Below are positions 2,876 to 54,900 of a stretch of 64,000 nt of DNA, piece by piece. Source of the DNA: Harriotta raleighana (lineage: Eukaryota); NCBI GenBank assembly GCA_050575255.1, contig JBNZDD010013693.1, positions 4,286,857 to 4,350,856 of the forward strand. The letters run 5' to 3'. The notes below the pieces were generated by a model that had not been told where the DNA came from, made no database searches, and saw only the letters and a program-made list of their open reading frames with translations. Both the position numbers and the translations under genes were made by a program. Numbering within the stretch: position 1 is the first letter of the stretch; each line of letters begins with the position of its first letter.

Positions 2876-5800
2876 TAAACACTCCAGGTCTGATTCTATC
2901 CTAACAGGCTTCAGGCTGTTTCAGGCTCGCAGACCTGAGTGTGGAAGTGGTGGTAGAAGGGATGGGTCAAAAGGGCAGATCCGGTCATGGCTATCTTCCC
3001 CACAGAGAGGTCACAGTGAGAGAGGGGATCATTCTGTGTGTTGCTCGCGTTGTCAACGGTTACAGTACAAGTAACTGCAATCCTAATTTTCTTGTGGAAA
3101 ATTCAATAGTTCTGGTAATTAACCAGTAAACAAGTGTGTTTGATGCGGTGAGAGTGTAGAGATTTAGAACTTAGTAGACACATCAGTCAATAAGAGATCT
3201 TGAAGCAAGGAAGGTAGGTGAATGGGCACAACTACAGATCAAGCAGGCTCTGAGACTCATTGGTGACTGTGTGATGGCCAAAGAAACAGTTAAATGTTCT
3301 TCAGCAAAGGAGAGGATAGACAAGGAGAAATACAAGAAAACTCCCTAACTTAAAGAAGATTGTCTAACATTGGGTAACTTTTAGGTCCAGAAATTGATCA
3401 CCTTTCTTGTGTTCATTGGCGCTTGCCACCATAAGCTTAATACTCTCCGGAATTAGATGGGCAGATTGCATCCTTCCAGGGAGCAAGTACATATTCCATT
3501 CTAATATGTAGGTGGCATGCATGAAATTCTCAGTTTGGTTGGATACTGGTGATGGATTTCCACATGTGACGGACTCCAAGCCGACCAAAAAACATACATG
3601 CATTTGGATGTAAATGAACCTAGTCTCAATGGATCTTCTAGTTTATAAGATGCTGCTTCATGAAATATCTGCCTTAACAAAGATGGTAGTGTGGAGAGAA
3701 TACAAGCACATGAAGGACTAGGGCCACATATTGTGGGCCGAGGGCAGACACGTCACAGCCATCCAGATTGTGGAAGACAATGGCAGCACAGTACACAGGG
3801 TCAGCCCTGTGTACTATAGTAAAGAATGAACAGTAATTGTGCGTCTGGAACACTTGCTGCTCCTCCCAGTGATGTCAATTCCAGCTCGACTAGAAATTAA
3901 CATGTGTCTCATTTGTGTGATTTTTTTTAACCAAATTCCTCAATGGAAAACATGTAAAACTTCAGCGTGAGCTGCAGAAGGTATTGTTTGGCACATTGAT
4001 GTTCCAGAAATTTGCTAGTTACATATTACAAACTAGATCCCATTATGTTGATGAATCTGAACATCGAAACCTCCAGTGGTGGTTCTGACTGTTTATATGT
4101 GAGCGGAAGGTTAACAAAGTGAGCTGGCCTTGATTTGCAATCCGACACAGACACACATGGCTTAGTAACTCTTGTAGAAATATTGCCAGTCATTTCATAA
4201 ATCAACTTTTAACTTAAAATAATCTATTTGCTCCAATGTTTTGATTCCAACCAATCCTAAACTCAATGGCCCATAGCCTCACCCACACCAATCTCCACAC
4301 TTGTCACCCCAACTCTGATAGACTCCACTGTCTCCAGCGATGGGATTTCAAGGTTCCCAGCCTAACCTGTAAATGCCCTAGGACCTCTTTATCTGTGAAA
4401 TCCTTTGCCCCTGCTCCACTCGGCTAACACAGGCTTTCCCACCCCTCCCTCCCCCACCCACCTCACCCATCATCGGTGGTCAATATTCTACACCTCTAAC
4501 CTCTGCATCTCCCTCCCTTTACCGCTTTGTCTTACCCCTTCTCTAACAGACTTGACGCCCCATTTTAAAACCTACCTCTTCATCTACGCCTGTGGTCACT
4601 TGCCCTTCCACGCACCCACCCTATCTTCCAGATGTTATCCTACACAAAGGGCACGATATAAACCCAAATTGTTGTTGTCGGATTAGAACTGTAGCAGCAC
4701 TGGTTCGATTCCAGAAATGGATCTCCTCAAATAAAAATTATCTTAAAATAGCCGGTAAACATATTGACAGCTTAAAATACACCACTATGAATGCTAAATG
4801 TCGTGCGTGAAGACAACATTGCTTCATCTCAATTCTGATGCAATAAGCTGCGGAGAAACAGCAATTTGAATTTATATTCAATTGAGTACAGCAATGCCCC
4901 ACAAACACGACTGCCTGTGAGACACTGCTGTGTGCAATTGGCTGCCGTGCTTTGCCCACAAAATAACCAATTAATACACTTTACAATATATTTTGTTGTT
5001 ATTTGAGATGTCTCAATGACGTAAGGTTCTATAGCAAATGCAAGGATTACTATTATAGCATCCTTCACATAGGATAACATCTCCAGAACGTTCTGTACAG
5101 TGACAGGATTGTACAACGAGCAAGGAAGGGGAGAAGGAGATGACTATTAGTAGATCAACGTGATAAGAGTATGTTGAAGCGAGGGGGCAGAATCAAAAGG
5201 CAGAGGGAGGGAGTTTCAGGGGTTAGAGATTTAGAATCTGAAGACTCGACTGTCATTGGCGTCACAGAGAGGGCAGGGGATGCCAAACCTGAGTTAGCTG
5301 AATGGCGGGAGCAAGGAGAGGAATGAGACAAGGTTTGTTTCAATGCATAGATCAAACTCCCACTATCCGAATCCAAATTGTTTCAGTCAGCAGAGCAGGA
5401 GCTCACCTGGACTGGAAGAGGAGAATGCAAAGCACAGAGCCCTGAGTCAGAACTCAGAACAAGTCACCAGATGGATTAGCACATCGATTCTCACCCACTC
5501 CTCCCCAGCCCTTGCCGAGTTGGGAGGATAAAAGGCTTCAAGTTGGGGGGTGGGGGGTGGGGAGGGTAACATTCTATAGCGGTCATTGCCCCACAAACAC
5601 GACTGACTGTGAGACACTGCTGTGTGCAATTGGCTGCCGTTGCCCCAGAATCCCTTGTGGACCTGGTCTGTGCCAAACAATACTAGGCCAGAAGCAGGCC
5701 ACTTGGCCACAAAACACATTCCTGTGATTCAAGAGCCGTGTCAGCTGTCAGCTTGGTGAGGTCAGCAGCACTCTCCACTCAGGCCCTTTAAACTGGAGCA

Positions 5801-12920: not shown

Positions 12921-13640
12921 ACACACACACACACAGCGACACCTACCGGCTGCCATACACACACACACAGCGACACCTACCGGCTGCCATACACACACAC
13001 ACAGCGACACCTACCGGCTGCCATACACACACACACAGCGACACCTACCGGCTGCCATACACACACACACAGCGACACCTACCGGCTGCCATACACACAC
13101 ACACAGCGACACCTACCGGCTGCCATACACACACACACAGCGACACCTACCGGCTGCCATACACACACACACAGCGACACCTACCGGCTGCCATACACAC
13201 ACACACAGCGACACCTACCGGCTGCCATACACACACACACAGCGACACCTACCGGCTGCCATACACACACACACAGCGACACCTACCGGCTGCCATACAC
13301 ACACACACAGCGACACCTACCGGCTGCCATACACACACACACAGCGACACCTACCGGCTGCCATACACACACACACAGCGACACCTACCGGCTGCCATAC
13401 ACACACACACAGCGACACCTACCGGCTGCCATACACACACACACAGCGACACCTACCGGCTGCCATACACACACACACAGCGACACCTACCGGCTGCCAT
13501 ACACACACACACAGCGACACCTACCGGCTGCCATACACACACACACAGCGACACCTACCGGCCGCCATACACACACAGCGACACCTACCGGCCGCCATAC
13601 ACACACACAGCGACACCTACCGGCCGCCATACACACACAC
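12920..13640. repeat. 34-bp minisatellite, ~20 near-identical copies (AGCGACACCTACCGGCTGCCAT(AC)6), decaying into CA-rich sequence to ~13990
   Basis: The gcgacacc anchor recurs at 12970, 13004 and 13038 (period 34). The translated ORFs repeat every 34 aa (3 units). Confidence 0.95.
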
Positions 13641-14056
13641 AGCGATATCTGCCGACCGCCATACACATACACAGTGACACCTGTCAGCCGCCACACACAC
13701 AGCGACACCTGCCGGCCGCCACACACACATACATACACTCACACACCATACACTCACACACACAGCGACACCTGCCGGCCGCCACACACACATACATACA
13801 CTCACACACCATACACTCACACACACACCGACACCTGTCGGCCACCACACACACACACTATACACACATTCACACCATTCACACACGATACACACACCNT
13901 AGAAACACACACACACCGACACCTGTCGGCCACCATACACACACACTATACACACATTCACACCATTCACACACGATACACACACCTGCCGGCCTCTCTG
14001 ACATGGAGGTGGTAGACGAGGTCTCCTTCAGGTTGATCCGGCTCCAAGGTGACATC

Positions 14057-14380
14057 ATAATAATAATAATCCTTGCATTTGATGTAGCGCTTTTCACATC
14101 TTCTAGACGTCTCAAAGCGCCTCACAGAATATACTGTAAAGTGAATTGATTGTATATTTGTGGACGAAACAGGGCAGCCAATTGCGCACAGCAGCGTCCC
14201 CCCCACACAAACAGTCCTGGATTGAAATGACCAATTTCATTATTGTTTTGTTTGAAGGAATTATTATCAGACGTGTGGAGTAAGGAAACTTACTCAAGGT
14301 TTCGCCCTGACCTGCCTGGAATCGAACCCAGGTCTCTTGCTTGAGAGACGACAGCTCTAACCACTGAGCTACAGGACTCC
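14057..14380 (-). mobile_element. Near full-length tRNA-derived SINE with intact Pol III A and B boxes
   Basis: Minus strand GGAGTCCTGTAGCTCAGTGGTTAGAGC...GACCTGGGTTCGATTCCAGGCAGG (A-box TAGCTCAGTGG, B-box GGTTCGATTCC), with tail ...atcaaatgcaaggattattattatt. Confidence 0.85.
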
Positions 14381-22612: not shown

Positions 22613-22767
22613 ATGGACGTGGACATGGAGCTGGACCAGGACCTGATGCAGAAGTTCAGTTGTCTGGGCACCACCGACAAGGACGTGCTGATCTCCGAGT
22701 TCCAGAGGCTGCTGGGCTTCCAGCTCAACCCCGCTGGCTGCGCATTCTTCCTGGACATGACCAATTG
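22613..22767 (+). CDS. ILRUN: ILRUN (C6orf106) exon 1, UBA-like domain
   Basis: MDVDMELDQDLMQKFSCLGTTDKDVLISEFQRLLGFQLNPAGCAFFLDMTN(W); donor TG|GTGAGT at 22768; 155 nt, phase 2. Confidence 0.96.
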
Positions 22768-22794
22768 GTGAGTCCCGCGGCTTCTCTAGGCCGN

Positions 22795-22951
22795 CAGGAC
22801 CTGATGCAGAAGTTCAGCTGTCTGGGCACCACCGACAAGGACGTGCTGATCTCCGAGTTCCAGAGGCTGCTGGGCTTCCAGCTCAACCCCGCTGGCTGCG
22901 CATTCTTCCTGGACATGACCAATTGGTGAGTCCCGCGGCTTCTCTAGGCCG
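22795..22951 (+). other. Duplicate of the ILRUN exon 1 3' part and donor after a single N (probable assembly/haplotype overlap)
   Basis: 157-bp copy of 22637-22793, joined by N at 22794. It differs by one synonymous base (AGT at 22660 vs AGC at 22818). Confidence 0.85.
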
Positions 22952-23169
22952 CTGGCCGGGGCCGCTCCACCTCCCCCCCCGAGTCCCCAAACCTTACCCT
23001 GTCCTGCCCCGGGCGGGCGGCGGCGGCGGCTGCTCTCCAGGCCTGTGTTTGTAGTTGTTCCTCTGCCCCTGGGATTACACAAGTCAGGCGGGGACTCTTG
23101 CCCGGCGAGAGGGGGCGGCTGCCCACAGGTGACCGCACTGCAGAGAGCAGCTCCTCCTCCCCCCACCCC

Positions 23170-28060: not shown

Positions 28061-28208
28061 TGCGCAATTTGGCTGCCGCATTTCACCCACAAATTTACAG
28101 TCAATTCTCCTACTCTCTTTCCCCCAACCCCTCCCTGCTCTGGTCTCTACCTGACTGTTCAGCGCCTTGGGACGTCCTCCCGACATGAAAGGCACTATAT
28201 AAATGTAA

Positions 28209-28246
<38 letters not shown>
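28061..28246 (+). mobile_element. 5'-truncated retroelement 3' end with (ATTG)n tail
   Basis: SINE-like body gcgcaatttggctgccgc...cagtcaattc fused to the type B L2 tail gcgccttgggacgtcctcccgacatgaaagg, ending in (ATTG)n. Same tail as 30979-31160. Confidence 0.75.
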
Positions 28247-28249
<3 letters not shown>

Positions 28250-28505: not shown

Positions 28506-29232
28506 CAGGCAGTCCTCTAGTTACGACGTTTCAAGGTACGACAATTCGAAGTTACGACACTTAAAATCAGTAAAATTACGTCCGAGTTACATCCGAGGTT
28601 TTGAAGTTACGACACTACTATGTAAATACTTTAGTTGCCCCACGCGCAATAGAAAACTGGAGTCGCCGCTCTCAACACTTACAGGACCACGATACGCGTT
28701 CAGGACAGGAACAGGATGGAGGCGAAACGCGAGTGTGTACTGTACAGGTACTGTGTGAGTCTGTGAGCTCGGCGGTACAGTACTCTCCAGCCTTTAGACT
28801 GCGCTGCATCACGTGCGATCTGCGTTGCGCTACGTCACGTGTGATCTGCGTTGCGCTACGTCACATGTGATCTCCTGCGTTGTGCTATGTCGCATGTGAT
28901 CTGCGTTGCGCTACATCGCGTGTGATCTCCTGTGTTGCGCTACATCGCGTGTGATCTCCTGTGTTGCGCTACGTTGCGTGTGATCTCCTGTGTTGCACTA
29001 CATCGAGTGCCAGACTCACAATGAAGCCATGTAAGTATAGTAATATTTTATTTTATTTACAGTGCTGTACATATTAGGAGGGGTGCAGGGGAGAGAGGGC
29101 AGCTCACTATACACTACAACCAATCACTGTATGTTACTGTAAGCATTATAGGGGGGTGACTCGACTTACATACAAATTCGACTTACACTACATCTTAGGA
29201 ACCTAACCCTGACGTAACTTGAGGACTGCCTG
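28506..29232. mobile_element. Tigger/pogo-like non-autonomous DNA transposon with TA TSD and internal CpG-rich tandem repeat
   Basis: TA-CAGGCAGTCCTCTAGTTACGAC ... GACGTAACTTGAGGACTGCCTG-TA (22-bp TIR, 2 mismatches). Internal ~27-29-bp repeats gtgtgatctcctgtgttgcgctacatcgc lie at ~28800-29010. Confidence 0.88.
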
Positions 29233-30978
29233 TACGTTGTTTCATTTAAAATCGCACTTTTCAAGAACACATCCCCAACGTTAATTGAGGAGTCCCAGTA
29301 TGTAGCCCAAGTACTAAAAGGAAAGCTTTGAATTACCTGAAATTGACAGCAAGCCAAATTTTAGACCAAATGGATTGTGAATGGATTCAAAAGAATTGGA
29401 AAGGAAGCACAAATTGAAATGGTATTCTTCAAATGTTATTTAAAGTTTGTGTAGTGGAATTTGTTCTAAATTTGACTTCAGGTTCCTTCAAGACACCAGT
29501 GTATGGAATGCTAGGTCTGATGCTCAATACATTCAGGTGAAAGCAAAGATTTGAACCTTTGTTTGTGGAACAGTAAGATGGACTTTTGTGTTGCTTATCT
29601 CTCAGCAATTCTCTGTGTGACAAAAACTAGGTGCAAAAATATAAATACAAGCTTAGATTGAACTACTCAAATGCCTGGTGTACTGGTGCAAAGAGAATGT
29701 GATTTGTGCCCTGAAGTACTGCTCTGCCTGGCTAGGAGTACTGAGATCACCCCAGAGGATTGGCTGAATTCCAATATTCGGTTACTGAACAACAACAACA
29801 ACAAAATTACACTTGTATAGTGCCTTTCATGTTAAGAGGATGTCCCAAGACGCTGGACAGTCACTGCTTCAGACCTGAGCTGGGGACAGGTGTGGGGGAA
29901 GGAAGGGGGGATTAGGAGTTGCCGATGGGACCATTGAAGAGGAGAGTCTTGAGGCAGGACTTGAAGGGGGACGGGGTTAGGCGGAGGGACTGCGGGATGG
30001 AGTTCCAGAGGTTGGGGACCGAATGGCTATAGATTCGCCTGCCAATGGTGGGTCCAGGGACGTGGAGCAAGCCAGAATCTGCTGAATGGAGGGGGTGGGC
30101 AAGTTGGTAAGGAGTTAGAAGATCATGGATGTAGGGTGGGACAAGGTTGTGGAGCTTTAGTTTAGTAAATGTGAGGACCAGGATCTTGAATTGGATTCTC
30201 TGGATGATAGGGAGTCGGCCGAGGATGAGGGAATGGGGTCATGGAGTTTGGAACAGTAGGGGACACGGGCCGCAGAGTTCTGGATTATCTGCAACCTGTG
30301 GAGGGAGAAATGAGTCGAGTGAGCAACCATGGAAGCTGATGTTGGCAGCATCTGATGCTTGAAGGCGCTGGCGCGAACCAATCAATAAGGCCTCTGTCTT
30401 ATTGACTTTCAACTGTAGGAATGATAATGCTCATCCAGGACTTGATGTCTGACAGACAGTCTATCAAGACAGCTGGAGTCCTGGAGTCAAGGGTAGAGGC
30501 AGAGAGATAGAGTTGGACAAGACGGAAGCCATACTGCTTGGCTCCCATCAACGTCTTCACTCCTGTACTACTAAACTCCTCAAATCTCTCTTGAGAAGGA
30601 CTGTCTTCTTCCACCTATACCACATTGCCCACCTCCAACTATACCTTACCCCAAATACAGCCAAAATCCTCATGCGTGCGTTGGTCACCTCCCACTTGGA
30701 TTACTCCAACACACTCTCCGGTTTCCCCAGTTCCACCATTCAATAGCTCCAGCTGCTTCAGAACTTTAGGCCCACAGACTGACCTGGACCAAACTACGTA
30801 CCCACCAGTTCTAGCAAGACTCCACTAGCTCTCCATCCCAGAATGGATCAACTTCTTTATCAACATGTGTTCAAACCCACTCATTCACTGGCACCTTCTG
30901 ACTTCCTCAGTCCACCACCTTGCAACTCCACTTGAGTCACTGGCTTCCTGCTCATCCCTCGTACCTTCTGTCCCACCA

Positions 30979-32049
30979 ATCAATCAATCAAAATCAAAAT
31001 TTTATTTATAAAGCGCCTTTCACGTCGGGAGGACGTCCCAAAGCGCTGTACAGCCAAATAGGGGGGGAGGGTTCAGGGAAAGGAGTAGGAAAAATTGACT
31101 GTATATTTGTGGGCGAAACGCGGCAGCAAATTGCGCACAGCAGTGTCCCACAAACACACACAGAAATGGGGGGAAAAAATGGCAAGGGGGAGAAATGGAG
31201 GGAAAAGCGGGGTGGGGTAAAATCAGGGAAGAAAAGGGGGGGGAGAAAGGGGGACAAGGGGGAAATCAGGGAGGGCAAAGAGGGAGAAATGTTGGCAAGT
31301 GGGAAGAGGGAGGGAAGGATGGGTAGGAGGCAAAACCAGGGAGAAAGGGGGGTAAGGGGGAAGAGGGAGGAAAGGGAGAGAGGGAAGGAGAAGAACAAAA
31401 AGGGGGAAAATCAGGGGGCAGGGGGAGTTTAAACAACAACAAACAACATCAACAATAATAAACAAAAAAGTAAACAACAATCAACAACAATAAACAAACA
31501 CAACAACAACACCCAACGACTGTCCAGCCACCGCTCCCTGTCCTCGCCGCCCGCCTGGACCATCTCAAAAAAGGCGGGAACCAGGCCATCGATGGCACTC
31601 GCCGATCTCCCTCTTCCCCACTGGGACGCCGGGTGCTCCCGGCCCTCCTCCTCCCGCTCCACCGCACACATCAGTCATCCGCCCAGGCCCGTGTCCTCGA
31701 TTCTCAGGCCACTGACCCCGCCACTCAGGCCTGTGTCCCCGCTGCTCCAGCTCCACGGCCGCCGGTCCCTGGGTCGAGTCACCGGGCCTGTGCGGCTCCG
31801 GCTCAGCCACAGTCCGACTCCATACTCGACTCCCATCTCTAGCTCCAGCCGCAGCCCAGGCCAGGCCGAGCCGGCCCCCTGCTCCCAGCCGGGGATGGCA
31901 ACTCCCGTGGTGTGCGACCGACCGACCCCCGAGCCCCCCGCAGACACACGGGGCGCAGCCCAGCTTCCCGCGCTCGCGACTGGTGATCATGGTGATGGTA
32001 GTGGCGGCCGCTCCTAACCCTCCTGTACCGCCACCGCCATCTTTCTATA
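30979..32049 (-). mobile_element. Composite non-autonomous retroelement: YY1/CpG-rich 5' region, TG- and CT-rich spacers, SINE-like body and L2-type tail
   Basis: It interrupts an older plus-strand L2 (tcccacca|insert|ttggaggccgagctttcagcc...ctctggaac). The minus strand begins TATAGAAAGATGGCGG and ends ...gggacgtcctcccgacgtgaaaggcgctttataaataaaattttgattttgattgattgattg. Confidence 0.7.
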
Positions 32050-32880
32050 TTTGGAGGCCGAGCTTTCAGCCAATACTCTACAAAACTCTGGAACACTCTC
32101 CGTCAATCCTCCTGCCTTGCTCCTCTCCCCCCTTTTCAGGGGGAGTGCTACATAAGTGCAAGTTGTTAATGTTGGGGCTAAGCAAGTCATCTTGGAGCAA
32201 GCTTCGTTCCAAGAAGACCCTGCTTTTTTATTCCAACCGGAGAATAATCTGGAAAGAAATTTTAAGATTGCCATAATTTCCTGGAATAATACTGATTCCT
32301 TTGCAGCTTGGTTATCCATGAATGCCTGAGATAGTGTTAACACAATTGGTTAAGAAAATCAGGGGAATATCCAAAATGATTGCAGCTTCAATAAGAACTA
32401 AAACATCACCTATTGTAATTGCACTTGTATACTATCACCTGCAAGGTGGGAGAAGAGACTATCAGATGAGACGTTGTGGAGATGCTGAGACAGGTTGAAG
32501 TGAAACCAGGAAAGTGCAGAGCCAGGGAGCAGAGACAGTGAAGAAGAATTGAATTGAATTGTGGCAAAAGCAGTAGGGTGATCCAGGATAAGGAAGCACA
32601 GAAAGCCCTGGTTGGAAACAGAAGATATCGTTTGAGACCATGCTATTGCCAACTTTAACACAGGAAGAAAATTGACCAATGTACTAATAATTTTCTTTGG
32701 ATCCCTCCAAAATCAAGTAGTATGCATATATTTTAAAATAGTGGGATGGATAAGGTAGCATTCAGCACAATAATGCACCCTTTAGTTTCTTCTGCTACTT
32801 TTCAGACCATTGTATAGTCAGTGGTCCATTTGATTCCCAAACTTACTGAAGGAATTTTTATTTATTTTTTTGAATCAGTT

Positions 32881-38639: not shown

Positions 38640-38794
38640 GAATTTGCAAGCTGCCATCGGTGCTTACTATGACTTTGAGAGCCCAAATATCAATGCTCCT
38701 TCTATGTCATTTGTTGAAGATGTTACAATAGGAGAAGGGGAATCTGTACCACCTGACACCCAGTTCACCAAAACTTGGAGGATACAGAACACAG
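38640..38794 (+). CDS. ILRUN: ILRUN exon 2
   Basis: tttgtctttcag|G completes W, then NLQAAIGAYYDFESPNINAPSMSFVEDVTIGEGESVPPDTQFTKTWRIQNT(G)|gtaaat; 155 nt. Confidence 0.97.
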
Positions 38795-51900: not shown

Positions 51901-54900
51901 CACTCACCAACCAGTGCTCAATACTCTCAAGAATTAGGTAAGCATGGAGGGAGTGTATATTCTAATCCAGGCAGAGGGGAAATTCCATGTTTATATGGGC
52001 ATACATATCTATTAGTGAAGCATGGTAACGGATTTCCACATGTGTCAGACATCTGGCGGATCAAAAAAAGTGCCATAATAGAAAGTTGCTTTAACATTGC
52101 AATAGTGCATTGAAATGCATGCTGTATTTTGAAAGCTTTAAGAACTAGTATAAGTAATTTGCACATATTACATCTTGACATAGTCTTTGTCTTTGTTGGC
52201 CTGGGGAGGCAGCTTTGTGACCTCCATGTGAGTGTGTAGTTGGTAGATATCTGAATGCCCTTTTCTATGATACTTGAAGTGAAGTAATCTCTCTTCCAGT
52301 ACCTGATCTTATTGATACATGCCCAGAGAAGGCAGATATCTGAGGGCTGCCCCTTCCCACCCATAGTAATATTCTGTTCCCAATTACAGTGGACAAGGAG
52401 TGGATGTTATGGATATTGGATGTTGAATGTCAATTTCTTTTTAACATTAGAAAAATGGTGATCCAATGATCTTCCCACAAACTTTTGATCGGCACCTAAA
52501 TTGATTCATAACCACTGCCGTTTAATCCGCAGTGAAGCACATCAATCAAAATCAATCAAAATCAATCAATCAAAATCAATCAATCACATGCCAGAACTCT
52601 ACAAATGGGTTCTTCAATAACGTCACCATTAGTCCCTTAAATGTCCCCCAATGGAGCTGTGATTCTACTGGACCTGGTGTGAAATGTACTATGAAAGTCA
52701 TCACCTCAGCAGCCAGGCTCCAATGTGATCTGAGTTGAATCCCATTGATAAATCTGGTTTCTAAGGCACCTTATGTGGCTCTTTGCCTCACAATATAAAC
52801 TTGTCTATAAATTCTCAGCTCTAACTGAGATAAATAATCCTTTTAATTTGCATTTTGCATTTGAGATCCAGATCTTGAAATTGAATGATGTGATTCTGTT
52901 TTCTTTTACTTATGAGTGGCTTTGTAATGTACATATAGAAATAGAAAATTTTAACAGAAGAGTAGACCATCTGTCTTTGCAAGGTCCAACTGATTTTCCA
53001 ATGAAAGTTACTATACATTGCTCCTGGGGTGCAGTATTTATTACACATTGACTATAGTGTAGTACAGCTAGTTTTCTTAATTGACAAAGCAATCTCCAGT
53101 AAAATGTTTAGATTGGTCTCAAACCAATCTCTCTATTCCCGGTGTATTTTGACTCTTTGTTCTGGTCTTGATTTTATGGAGAACCCTTTTTTAAAGACAT
53201 TATTATGTGTTGTAACAGAGTGACTAGCAATTTTTTCTTGAATTATTTTGTTGAAACCTTTCGAACTGCCATGCAGATTTGATGTTATTATGCCCACCAA
53301 ATCCATTCAAAATACCTGTAGTGCTTACCTTAATAAACATTTCCTAAATTGAAATTGACACAAGCTACAGTGGAATCCTTTCATGTAATTTCTCATAACA
53401 TTTTTGTTTGTGGATTCTATCTTTGAACACTTTACTTTACTGTGTGATTGGTTATTGATGGAGGTTTCACAATTCAGCTGCAGAAGACCTCTAAGCACTG
53501 TAACAATTAGAGCTATCACTGTAGCTATCACTTGTAGACTTAGACAATATACATTTCCAAATCGGAAGATCTAGCAGGTGCTATTTGTGACCTGAATGCT
53601 GAACTTTCGCTAATTATTTTTCCTTGATGTTGCATTTGCTTTAAATGAGGGATATATATTTGCTTCAACCAGTGGATCAGGTTGGGTCTGATTTTCTAAT
53701 TTCAGCTATACTGCCAGAGGGAGGTGATGGGGAATAGATACGAAACCAACTTGCATGTAGTGCCTTTCATCCGGGTTAGTGTCCTAGAGCACATGACAGC
53801 GATGGAGACTCCGAGCTAAGGGTGAGAGGGAGGGGGAAGGCGACCATAAGTACAATCAAAAAGGAAGGTCTTTGGGTGGGATTTGAAATTGGGGGGAACA
53901 GAGGTAAGGTGGAGGGATTGAGGGATAGATTTCCAGAGCTTCGGGGCATAGTGGCTGATGGTGGAATGGAGGAGATGAGGGACAAACAGCAGGCCAGAGC
54001 CAGCCAAGTGGATGCAGCAGCATGGAGTACGCAAATCGGATAGGTAGGGATAAGGGTAAGATCTGTGGATAGTAAAATACTGAAGCTCCATGGAGGGAAA
54101 GGAGAGAGAAATTTGGATCTAAGGTATCACCTTGCACACCTCCTAGTGCATAGCTTCCAAGCATAATTGAGAGAATTATTGAACCCTGTTGCTAATCCAT
54201 GATGGACACTCCATTGTAGAGGTGTGTGACCCGGTGTTGTCAATGGGTTTTGTTTCTTGGTTTGAATGAGAATTAAATTTCACAAAATGTACTGAACACC
54301 ACTGAATACCAACCTCCAAACCACAGCGAACAGCTTTGTGATGTACTTCAACAACAAAAAACAACCAAAGAGTGTTAAAGCTTCTGGTTAATTTTATGGC
54401 ACCACATTCTGGGGGACATTATAGACATTTTAATGTGTGAAATAAATGATATCTTGCTGTGGCTGCTTTAAGCACTCAATTTCTAGAAATTCCATTGGTT
54501 CCAATTCACGTTAGTGGGTTGATAATCCATTCAGATTGCACTCGGGATATGAATTATGATTTTTGGTTCTTTTATATGGATAGGTATGTATGCTGTTTAA
54601 TGTCTATTTGATTTTCAGAAGCTATTGGCAAGACCCCTAACTTCTAAATATATCTGAACTTTATACACATCTGTAAAACCCAATTATACTTAACAATTTG
54701 TGGAATCTAGTCATTGTAAATTGCGGTCTAGCACTCATTTCTATGAATTTTTTTCAAAATACATGTTTTTCTCTTAGTTATTTTTGTGTGTTTCTTTGAT
54801 TTGTGCGAGCTTAACTTTACAGAAGTCACAAGAAAATTTGCCGATGAGATAAATCCCACTGATTCCAAATAGGCAGTTAGAATGGCCTCATTATTGCTTC

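Follow-up and report, generated by a model that had tools for sequence, protein, structure and literature searches.

Positions 30979–32050 of the window, the 64,000-nucleotide stretch of Harriotta raleighana DNA that was analysed, are occupied on the minus strand by a 1,072 bp insertion, a copy of the youngest subfamily (A) of a composite retroposon that is young, probably still active and assembled from host mRNAs. The best explanation as a whole, in which a mosaic head of host mRNA sequence is joined to an L2-type tail and propagated by a working cycle, is given a probability of roughly 80%; the anatomy of the element is practically certain. The original prediction of a full-length, modular, non-autonomous element with an L2-type tail is supported. 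Its description as a non-coding composite holds for the element as it is today and fails for its origin, the head being derived from protein-coding mRNAs of the host. From 5' to 3', preceded by the whole insertion and the two halves of its target, the parts are:

30979..32050, minus strand: whole insertion, subfamily A; no target-site duplication and no target deletion; the empty allele skips exactly 1,072 bp
30860..30978, plus strand: left half of the target, an old L2 fragment (tested part only)
32051..32150, plus strand: right half of the target, an old L2 fragment (tested part only)
32044..32050, minus strand: short 5' extension, absent from the family consensus and found again in one other copy (L055); likely flank of the source locus
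32033..32044, minus strand: YY1-type motif, family consensus CAAGATGGCGGC; window copy 10/12, with two mismatches
31925..32043, minus strand: decayed histone H2B variant coding remnant; the 5' 119 bp, from the Gly-rich tail to the start of the histone fold
31745..31929, minus strand: probable first-exon piece of a gene without a name ("gene X"); 80% identical to locus L438 over 223 bp (older subfamily consensus 92.6%)
31679..31744, minus strand: 21-bp GC-rich tandem repeat, about three decayed units; unit number varies in older subfamilies; present at L438
31586..31660, minus strand: remnant of two PRKCSH exons joined without an intron; decayed, the window copy aligned through an older subfamily
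31521..31585, minus strand: RUNDC1 5' coding-region remnant, the "box" conserved in all subfamilies (31565–31521: 21.7 bits, E 2.3e-6)
31433..31517, minus strand: TG-rich tract
31161..31432, minus strand: CT-rich tract; ten short T runs lie within it or close by
31093..31160, minus strand: body segment of the local tRNA-SINE with a predicted 14-bp hairpin (z -3.26), the 3' arm of which is a 5'-truncation hot spot
31000..31092, minus strand: L2 3' UTR-like pyrimidine tract and stem-loop (z -2.0), with AATAAA at 31006–31001
30979..30999, minus strand: (GATT)n terminal repeat

The CpG-rich module (31520–32049) has a GC content of 0.69 and a CpG observed/expected ratio of 0.80, against 0.36 for the window, and is followed by the TG-rich tract, the CT-rich tract, the SINE body and the L2-type tail in the order that had been proposed. 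As also foreseen, the block contains no detectable tRNA and no credible open reading frame, the five open frames of the window copy being without a Pfam match. A search of the block against Rfam (to E 1) gave no match.

The insertion was originally described as a block of about 1.07 kb, 30979..32049, splitting an old L2 whose halves rejoin. The block and its target are as described, with all 33 matches to the joined flanks spanning the junction (33/33, duplicated loci counted in), while the true end lies at 32050, one base further than given. The empty allele, for which a search had been suggested, is seen in contigs of two other public runs, X2 and X3, which come from one study: position 30979 is joined to 32052 and 1,072 bp are skipped, without a single difference over 200 (X2) and 142 (X3) flank bases. 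The shorter side of the junction measures 47 letters in X2 and 27 letters in X3, so that at least 31 letters on both sides are present only in X2; runs X5 and X6, in which the share was small, were given no weight. These contigs imply that the insertion is polymorphic, or absent in a very close relative.

As predicted, the insertion is antisense in intron 1 of an ILRUN-like gene, with exon 1 at 22613–22768 and exon 2 starting at 38641; later exons encode an NBR1 Ig-like domain. The antisense promoter that the element was originally said to place there is putative, and it may affect the host gene. Exon 1 of this gene appears doubled in tandem (22637–22952, 158 bp, 98%); an N stands at the join, and the doubling is probably an artefact of assembly. 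CpG-rich minisatellites are located in and upstream of the gene, at 28800–29009 and 12923–13985 (periods 26–29/55 and 34, respectively).

The element belongs to a multicopy family, as had been expected. The CpG-rich head gave 2,171 candidates in the 1.1-Gb genome, and all 40 that were scored are 90–100% identical. Head and tail occur in the same order at 28 of 29 other loci fetched, the remaining one running into a gap; of 27 further loci picked by their 5' end, 19 have the tail and eight end in gaps or are without it. The predicted youth is likewise confirmed: 21 gap-free copies differ by 0–2% from the consensus (median 0.47%), a divergence measured on top-ranked matches and so biased towards young copies, and the window copy differs by 0.66% from the subfamily A consensus. 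Raw-read depth, at a cover of about 1.0x and 1.5x and with the assembly size taken as genome size, indicates about 190–240 5' ends and, at 90% likeness, about 900 boxes. Exact matches to a 35-bp tail pattern number 2,966 (control 0), and 24 of the 30 fetched are family members. In half of the 24 sampled tail copies (12), the starts lie no more than 17 bases apart, on the hairpin's 3' arm; an Rfam search for a ribozyme at this truncation hot spot gave no match. In the parts of the literature available, no description of such a family was found, nor is RUNDC1 named among the matches listed; an entry may exist in Repbase or Dfam.

Several other copies and repeats were observed. An older subfamily of the element is represented at 28061–28247 (plus strand) of the window by a 5'-truncated copy, which starts in the hairpin and is 81% identical to the tail. 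At 52541–52586 (minus strand) there is a bare (GATT)n-type repeat, upstream of which no element can be recognised; it may be an extreme truncation. Elsewhere, copies are arranged head to head, tail to tail or nested in opposite orientation (L053, L114 and L103), and one (L314) is inserted in a long, stop-poor, CpG-rich satellite of several kb.

The head is a mosaic of three host genes, encoding an H2B variant, PRKCSH and RUNDC1, and likely of a fourth, as judged from alignments of the older subfamilies. Peptides derived from the element have their best protein matches in Callorhinchus milii. At the 5' end, a profile of 13 older H2B-bearing heads matches window positions 32043–31925 with 43.3 bits (E 2.7e-13), the best of 200 shuffles reaching 3.2. 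On an H2B-variant pseudogene (L303), this profile maps from coding base 115, inside the Gly-rich tail, from which it follows that the 5' end of the element and its YY1-type motif arose from tail codons. An origin of the 5' end from the start codon of a canonical H2B was considered and dropped, since the 5' end maps inside the tail of the variant; the 5' end may also be aligned to the Lys-Val-Ala run of the C. milii variant.

A coding stretch of histone H2B is found in subfamilies C, D and E; in C, the consensus and host H2B genes are 71% identical. One E copy (L172) retains an open frame of 83 residues (Pfam Histone, E 1.5e-12), 84% identical to the C. milii H2B variant, versus 72% to canonical H2B. 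All 14 older queries match the L303 pseudogene better than other H2B genes. In a search with the variant, 150 of 600 candidates were scored and 16 of 20 examined non-gene matches were element copies; no intact ortholog was found in the genome, only the pseudogene, while C. milii has an intact one. The H2B source sequence is intron-less. The pseudogene of this holocephalan variant (L303:1353–1804) contains one stop and one frameshift, and a truncated element copy is located about 330 bp downstream of it; the two together could be a chimeric retrocopy. A second divergent H2B variant is present in a histone cluster (L156/L158, contig C13217), with one copy intact and one frameshifted.

The second piece of the head is formed by gene X, likely the fourth host source. 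Its open frame starts from its own CAAGATGGC context and begins 4 of 30 sampled copies of subfamily B'. At L438, the frame and the 21-bp repeat stand directly behind motifs that we presume to be promoter-like. No element body was found downstream of the frame in the assembled 20 kb searched; the 1.1-kb gap that comes right after the candidate exon could hide one. Repeated searches to name the gene gave no match, and two matches to repeat proteins were judged spurious. The candidate first exon at L438 (9417–9830) has tandem E-box-like and TCTCGCGAGA motifs before the open frame, which resembles a mitochondrial presequence and includes a hydrophobic stretch and the 21-bp repeat as coding sequence.

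An acidic stretch of subfamily B' matches two consecutive exons of host PRKCSH (92% and 87%; E 7e-8 and 3e-24, respectively), the gene being found with PF12999 while a PF13015 search found nothing. The intron of about 560 bp between them is missing, which implies capture from spliced RNA, and the piece ends at the splice donor of the second exon; the window copy keeps a shortened remnant. Next comes the box. Located upstream of the TG tract, it gave a pattern with 456 exact matches, against 0 for the control, and these exposed the older subfamilies with different middles; in E copies the box is the end of a longer RUNDC1 stretch. In one older copy (L222), 62 residues are 81% identical to C. 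milii RUNDC1 (E 7e-20), and nearly all named proteins among the 120 matches listed for this peptide are RUNDC1. The RUNDC1 piece stops inside its coding run; the 5' exon of host RUNDC1 was searched for and is not assembled in the genome. Two duplicated copies at L248 (about 2360–2760 and 5340–5740), cut off by another repeat, have no H2B and contain RUNDC1 from near its start; they are a candidate for the earliest form of the family. Of the capture joins, then, that of PRKCSH is at a splice donor, those of H2B and RUNDC1 are not at exon ends and that of gene X lies in a gap. The donor end of PRKCSH would fit exon trapping, the H2B and RUNDC1 joins template switching.

The order in which the pieces were acquired can be followed along a ladder of subfamilies, each of those carrying host exon sequence being represented by at least 40 scored copies. 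In a tree of the H2B piece, 48 element copies fall on one side of a branch (97/83) that separates them from four genes. The variant is the nearest of these genes, and the copies follow in the order E, D, C; the bootstrap was unsettled, and two of 50 rows were left out for short alignment. Divergence falls from 8.9% in C over 5% in B' (28 copies, from consensus) to 0.5% in A. Along the ladder the middle of RUNDC1 was deleted, gene X and PRKCSH sequence took the place of the histone core, some lines gained a second CT-rich and hairpin unit by duplication, and the terminal repeat varied among TTG, ATT, TAAA and GATT.

The step from the genes to the C consensus is strand-biased: in the H2B piece, 22 of 55 A sites have changed to G, compared with T>C at 2 of 39 sites (p 4e-4). 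Subfamily D has A>G at 12 of 54 A sites (p 0.01), and the gene-to-gene control gave 3/53 A>G and 0/37 T>C. The gene X piece has no significant excess (A>G 1/33, then 5/26 A sites, p 0.18). A-to-I editing of the source RNA is the probable cause of this bias; a reverse-transcriptase bias may instead be responsible.

The open histone frame kept by the old copy L172, with its 84% identity to the C. milii variant, would also suit a protein-coding passenger of the HAL1 or HeT-A type, with a histone-fold helper as its product. Such a passenger is very improbable, as frameshifts and A>G changes (40%) accumulate along the ladder and the three youngest subfamilies lack the histone core; for the window copy, in which no Pfam match and no intact ORF1-like frame are found, it is contradicted.

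The predicted YY1 motif at the 5' end is present: the window has a single AAGATGGCGG, reading from 32043 on the minus strand. The letters TATAG, which had been taken as the start of the element, do not belong to the family consensus, which starts with (T)CAAGATGGCGG; one other copy, L055, has the same extension. Of 42 5' ends, 24 are exactly equal to the YY1 consensus CAAGATGGCGGC, and the second head, in the 4 of 30 B' copies mentioned above, begins at a AAGATGGC/AAAATGGC context. Extensions of 4–9 bases, of several kinds, are common to small groups of copies, which suggests several sources starting just upstream of the motif. The consensus CAAGATGGCGGC is printed in a source in which, in the part available, YY1 activates immediately downstream of start sites (PMC13017510), and proper initiation of L1 requires YY1 according to the available part of another (PMC8535693). 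By these features of its 5' end, the element seems rather more likely to have an internal Pol II start positioned by YY1 than to lack one.

It is possible, if on balance unlikely, that there is no internal promoter and that a few master loci are driven by flanking or host promoters, the 5' end being a processing or reverse-transcription stop and the YY1 match a Kozak-like ATG context. The shared 5' extensions do point to starts in flanking DNA, a ladder is what a few masters would be expected to produce, and SINEU and SVA_F1 are precedents for upstream drive in the portion of the source at hand (PMC4494074). Against this, the extensions are short and of more than one kind, several sources have their starts clustered no further than ten bases from the motif, heads of unrelated sequence open with this same motif, and the motif persists across subfamilies while the remaining head decays.

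Transcription by Pol III was also considered. The element contains no B box, and its sense strand has twelve T runs of four or more, which together argue against Pol III; the internal T-run argument is made likewise for SINEU in the part of that report available (PMC4494074). The element does carry a tRNA-SINE body segment and two loose A-box-like matches in the middle of the head, as a Pol III SINE with an unrecognisable head, or separate insertions nested by chance, might. With neither a tRNA nor an Rfam match, both are extremely improbable; a single-copy module or chance nesting, named at the outset as what could overturn the prediction, is further contradicted by a block that recurs intact and is missing as one unit from the empty allele.

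At the 3' side, the SINE body matches eight other places in the window at 81–92%, one of them below a tRNA-Glu head, in agreement with the prediction; from its resemblance, this segment is a putative Deu domain. The local tRNA-Glu SINE itself (window 14144–14378 and seven other places) is abundant, with a read depth over the body segment equivalent to about 35,000 copies. Some older copies of the element end in the SINE's own ATT tail, a tail exchange. The predicted L2-type nature of the last part is borne out by L2 copies with ORF2, which carry the same stem-loop, exact over 35 bp; two tail variants of subfamily A also occur in the youngest L2 sampled.

Structural features of an L2-mobilised element are found: the L2 stem-loop, a short terminal repeat, 5' truncation and no target-site duplication. 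The longest flank repeat is 2.9 bp, compared with 2.8 bp in mismatched controls, so there is no excess; absence of such duplications fits L2-type insertion. From these matches, L2 is very probably the driver of the element. That another LINE (CR1 or an unsampled clade) drives it and the L2 tail is a relic is improbable. No L2 as young as subfamily A was found among those sampled and no full-length L2 was recovered, the closest L2 copies being older than subfamily A (92–95% identical to each other, two duplicated pairs aside), and the terminal repeat differs, L2 ending in (TTG)n and the element in (GATT)n. These points for another LINE are met by the exact stem-loop, with the variants of the youngest L2, by the missing duplications and by the under-assembly of young long repeats in this genome, which has many gaps. 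A 1,039-residue "open" L2 frame was rejected, as it consists mostly of an assembly gap.

An internally deleted (bipartite) L2 or Rex LINE, with its parent's 5' UTR as head, would have an L2-type tail, and bipartite elements are Pol II units in the part of the source available (PMC5786205). This origin of the head, which the original prediction had raised, is highly improbable: nearly the whole head is assigned to host genes, and no match to it was found in 30 L2 3' loci and ten longer L2 loci, none of these 40 being a full-length L2. Nor was an autonomous parent with the same head found in 24 loci with the GATT tail or in the 27 loci picked by their 5' end, none of which continues into a LINE frame and eight of which end in gaps or lack the tail.

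Driven by L2 and headed by host mRNA, the element would pass through the following cycle. A source copy would be transcribed from a few bases upstream of the CAAGATGGCGGC motif. The L2 ORF2 protein would bind the 3' stem-loop in trans and prime at a nick on the short terminal repeat. Synthesis would often stop at the SINE hairpin, giving copies of about 140 bp, and sometimes reach the 5' end, re-creating the promoter. Now and then a host mRNA would be joined on, by exon trapping (PRKCSH) or template switching (H2B and RUNDC1); heads beginning with a YY1-type ATG context would found new subfamilies, and A-to-I edits in the source RNA would be fixed as A>G in the next master. Tentatively, and at somewhat less than even odds, the lineage may have begun as host coding sequence with an L2 tail, may have replaced its head several times through 5' gene regions whose ATG context served as YY1 initiator, and may write A-to-I edits into DNA.

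The accepted view is that small RNAs give rise to SINE heads, and L2, as a strict LINE, is not expected to move mRNA. In this family, which is probably still inserting, host mRNA has become the head, and surviving intermediates allow the captures to be dated and ordered; this suggests that an ordinary mRNA can become the head of a SINE-like parasite. If true, Pol II retroposons outside mammals would have a general route of origin, and GC-rich SINE heads of unknown origin a candidate explanation. Three matters are made testable: the origin of such heads, a YY1 site over a start codon as a sufficient portable promoter, and RNA editing inherited via retrotransposition. In practice, more than 100 scattered histone-like fragments can mislead gene annotation, and polymorphic insertions of the family are usable as population markers.

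Compared with known systems, each taken as far as the available parts of the cited accounts describe it, the element shares single features with several groups. Sadhu, SINEU and bird SINEs with GC-rich heads are also short or medium, non-coding and uniform, with internal oligo-T and no Pol III head; their heads are of snRNA or unknown origin, whereas that of the element is traced to named mRNAs (PMC4494074, PMC7245038, PMC5786205). The DeuSINE group (SacSINE1, LmeSINE1, AmnSINE1) has the L2-type tail in common with it, and the local tRNA-Glu SINE a body segment of 65–70 bp, but unlike the L2-tailed tRNA-SINEs the element has no tRNA or 5S head and no B box, and is four times longer (PMC4824008). 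Of the features of a SINE it has the LINE-derived 3' tail, and neither a small-RNA head nor A and B boxes free of oligo-T. Bipartite non-autonomous LINEs (Bov-A, RIME, NARTc and Vingi derivatives) are likewise probably Pol II units with a LINE tail and no protein; the head of the element, however, is not LINE-derived (PMC5786205).

Composites of a host-gene piece and a VNTR are also represented by gibbon LAVA, PVA (PTGR2-VNTR-Alu) as well as FVA, which differ in being primate, L1-driven, limited to one host gene and built on Alu and the SVA VNTR (PMC5753468). The Alu-like, SINE-R and hexamer modules, poly(A) and target-site duplications of the SVA/LAVA group are not found in the element, which ends in (GATT)n. 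SVA is associated with L1, poly(A) and target-site duplications, in place of which the element has an L2-type structured tail, with neither duplication nor poly(A) (PMC6139936). It also lacks Alu, HERV-K or hexamer parts, the likeness being architectural with no homology to SVA expected, and its entire head is host coding sequence, with three or four genes captured in series. The element is neither an SVA nor a bipartite LINE, and under the Pol III definition it is no SINE either. Closest to it among known elements are SVA_F1 (MAST2 exon 1) and chimpanzee pt_SVA_D6 (STK40 exon 1), as described in the part of the source available: like them, it is a non-autonomous composite with a GC-rich host exon at its 5' end, serving or possibly serving as internal promoter, a GC-rich variable tandem repeat, polymorphic copies and, for the PRKCSH piece, an end at a splice donor that would fit exon-end capture (PMC6139936). 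As in SVA_F1, host exon sequence forms the 5' end and has been carried through further rounds of retrotransposition.
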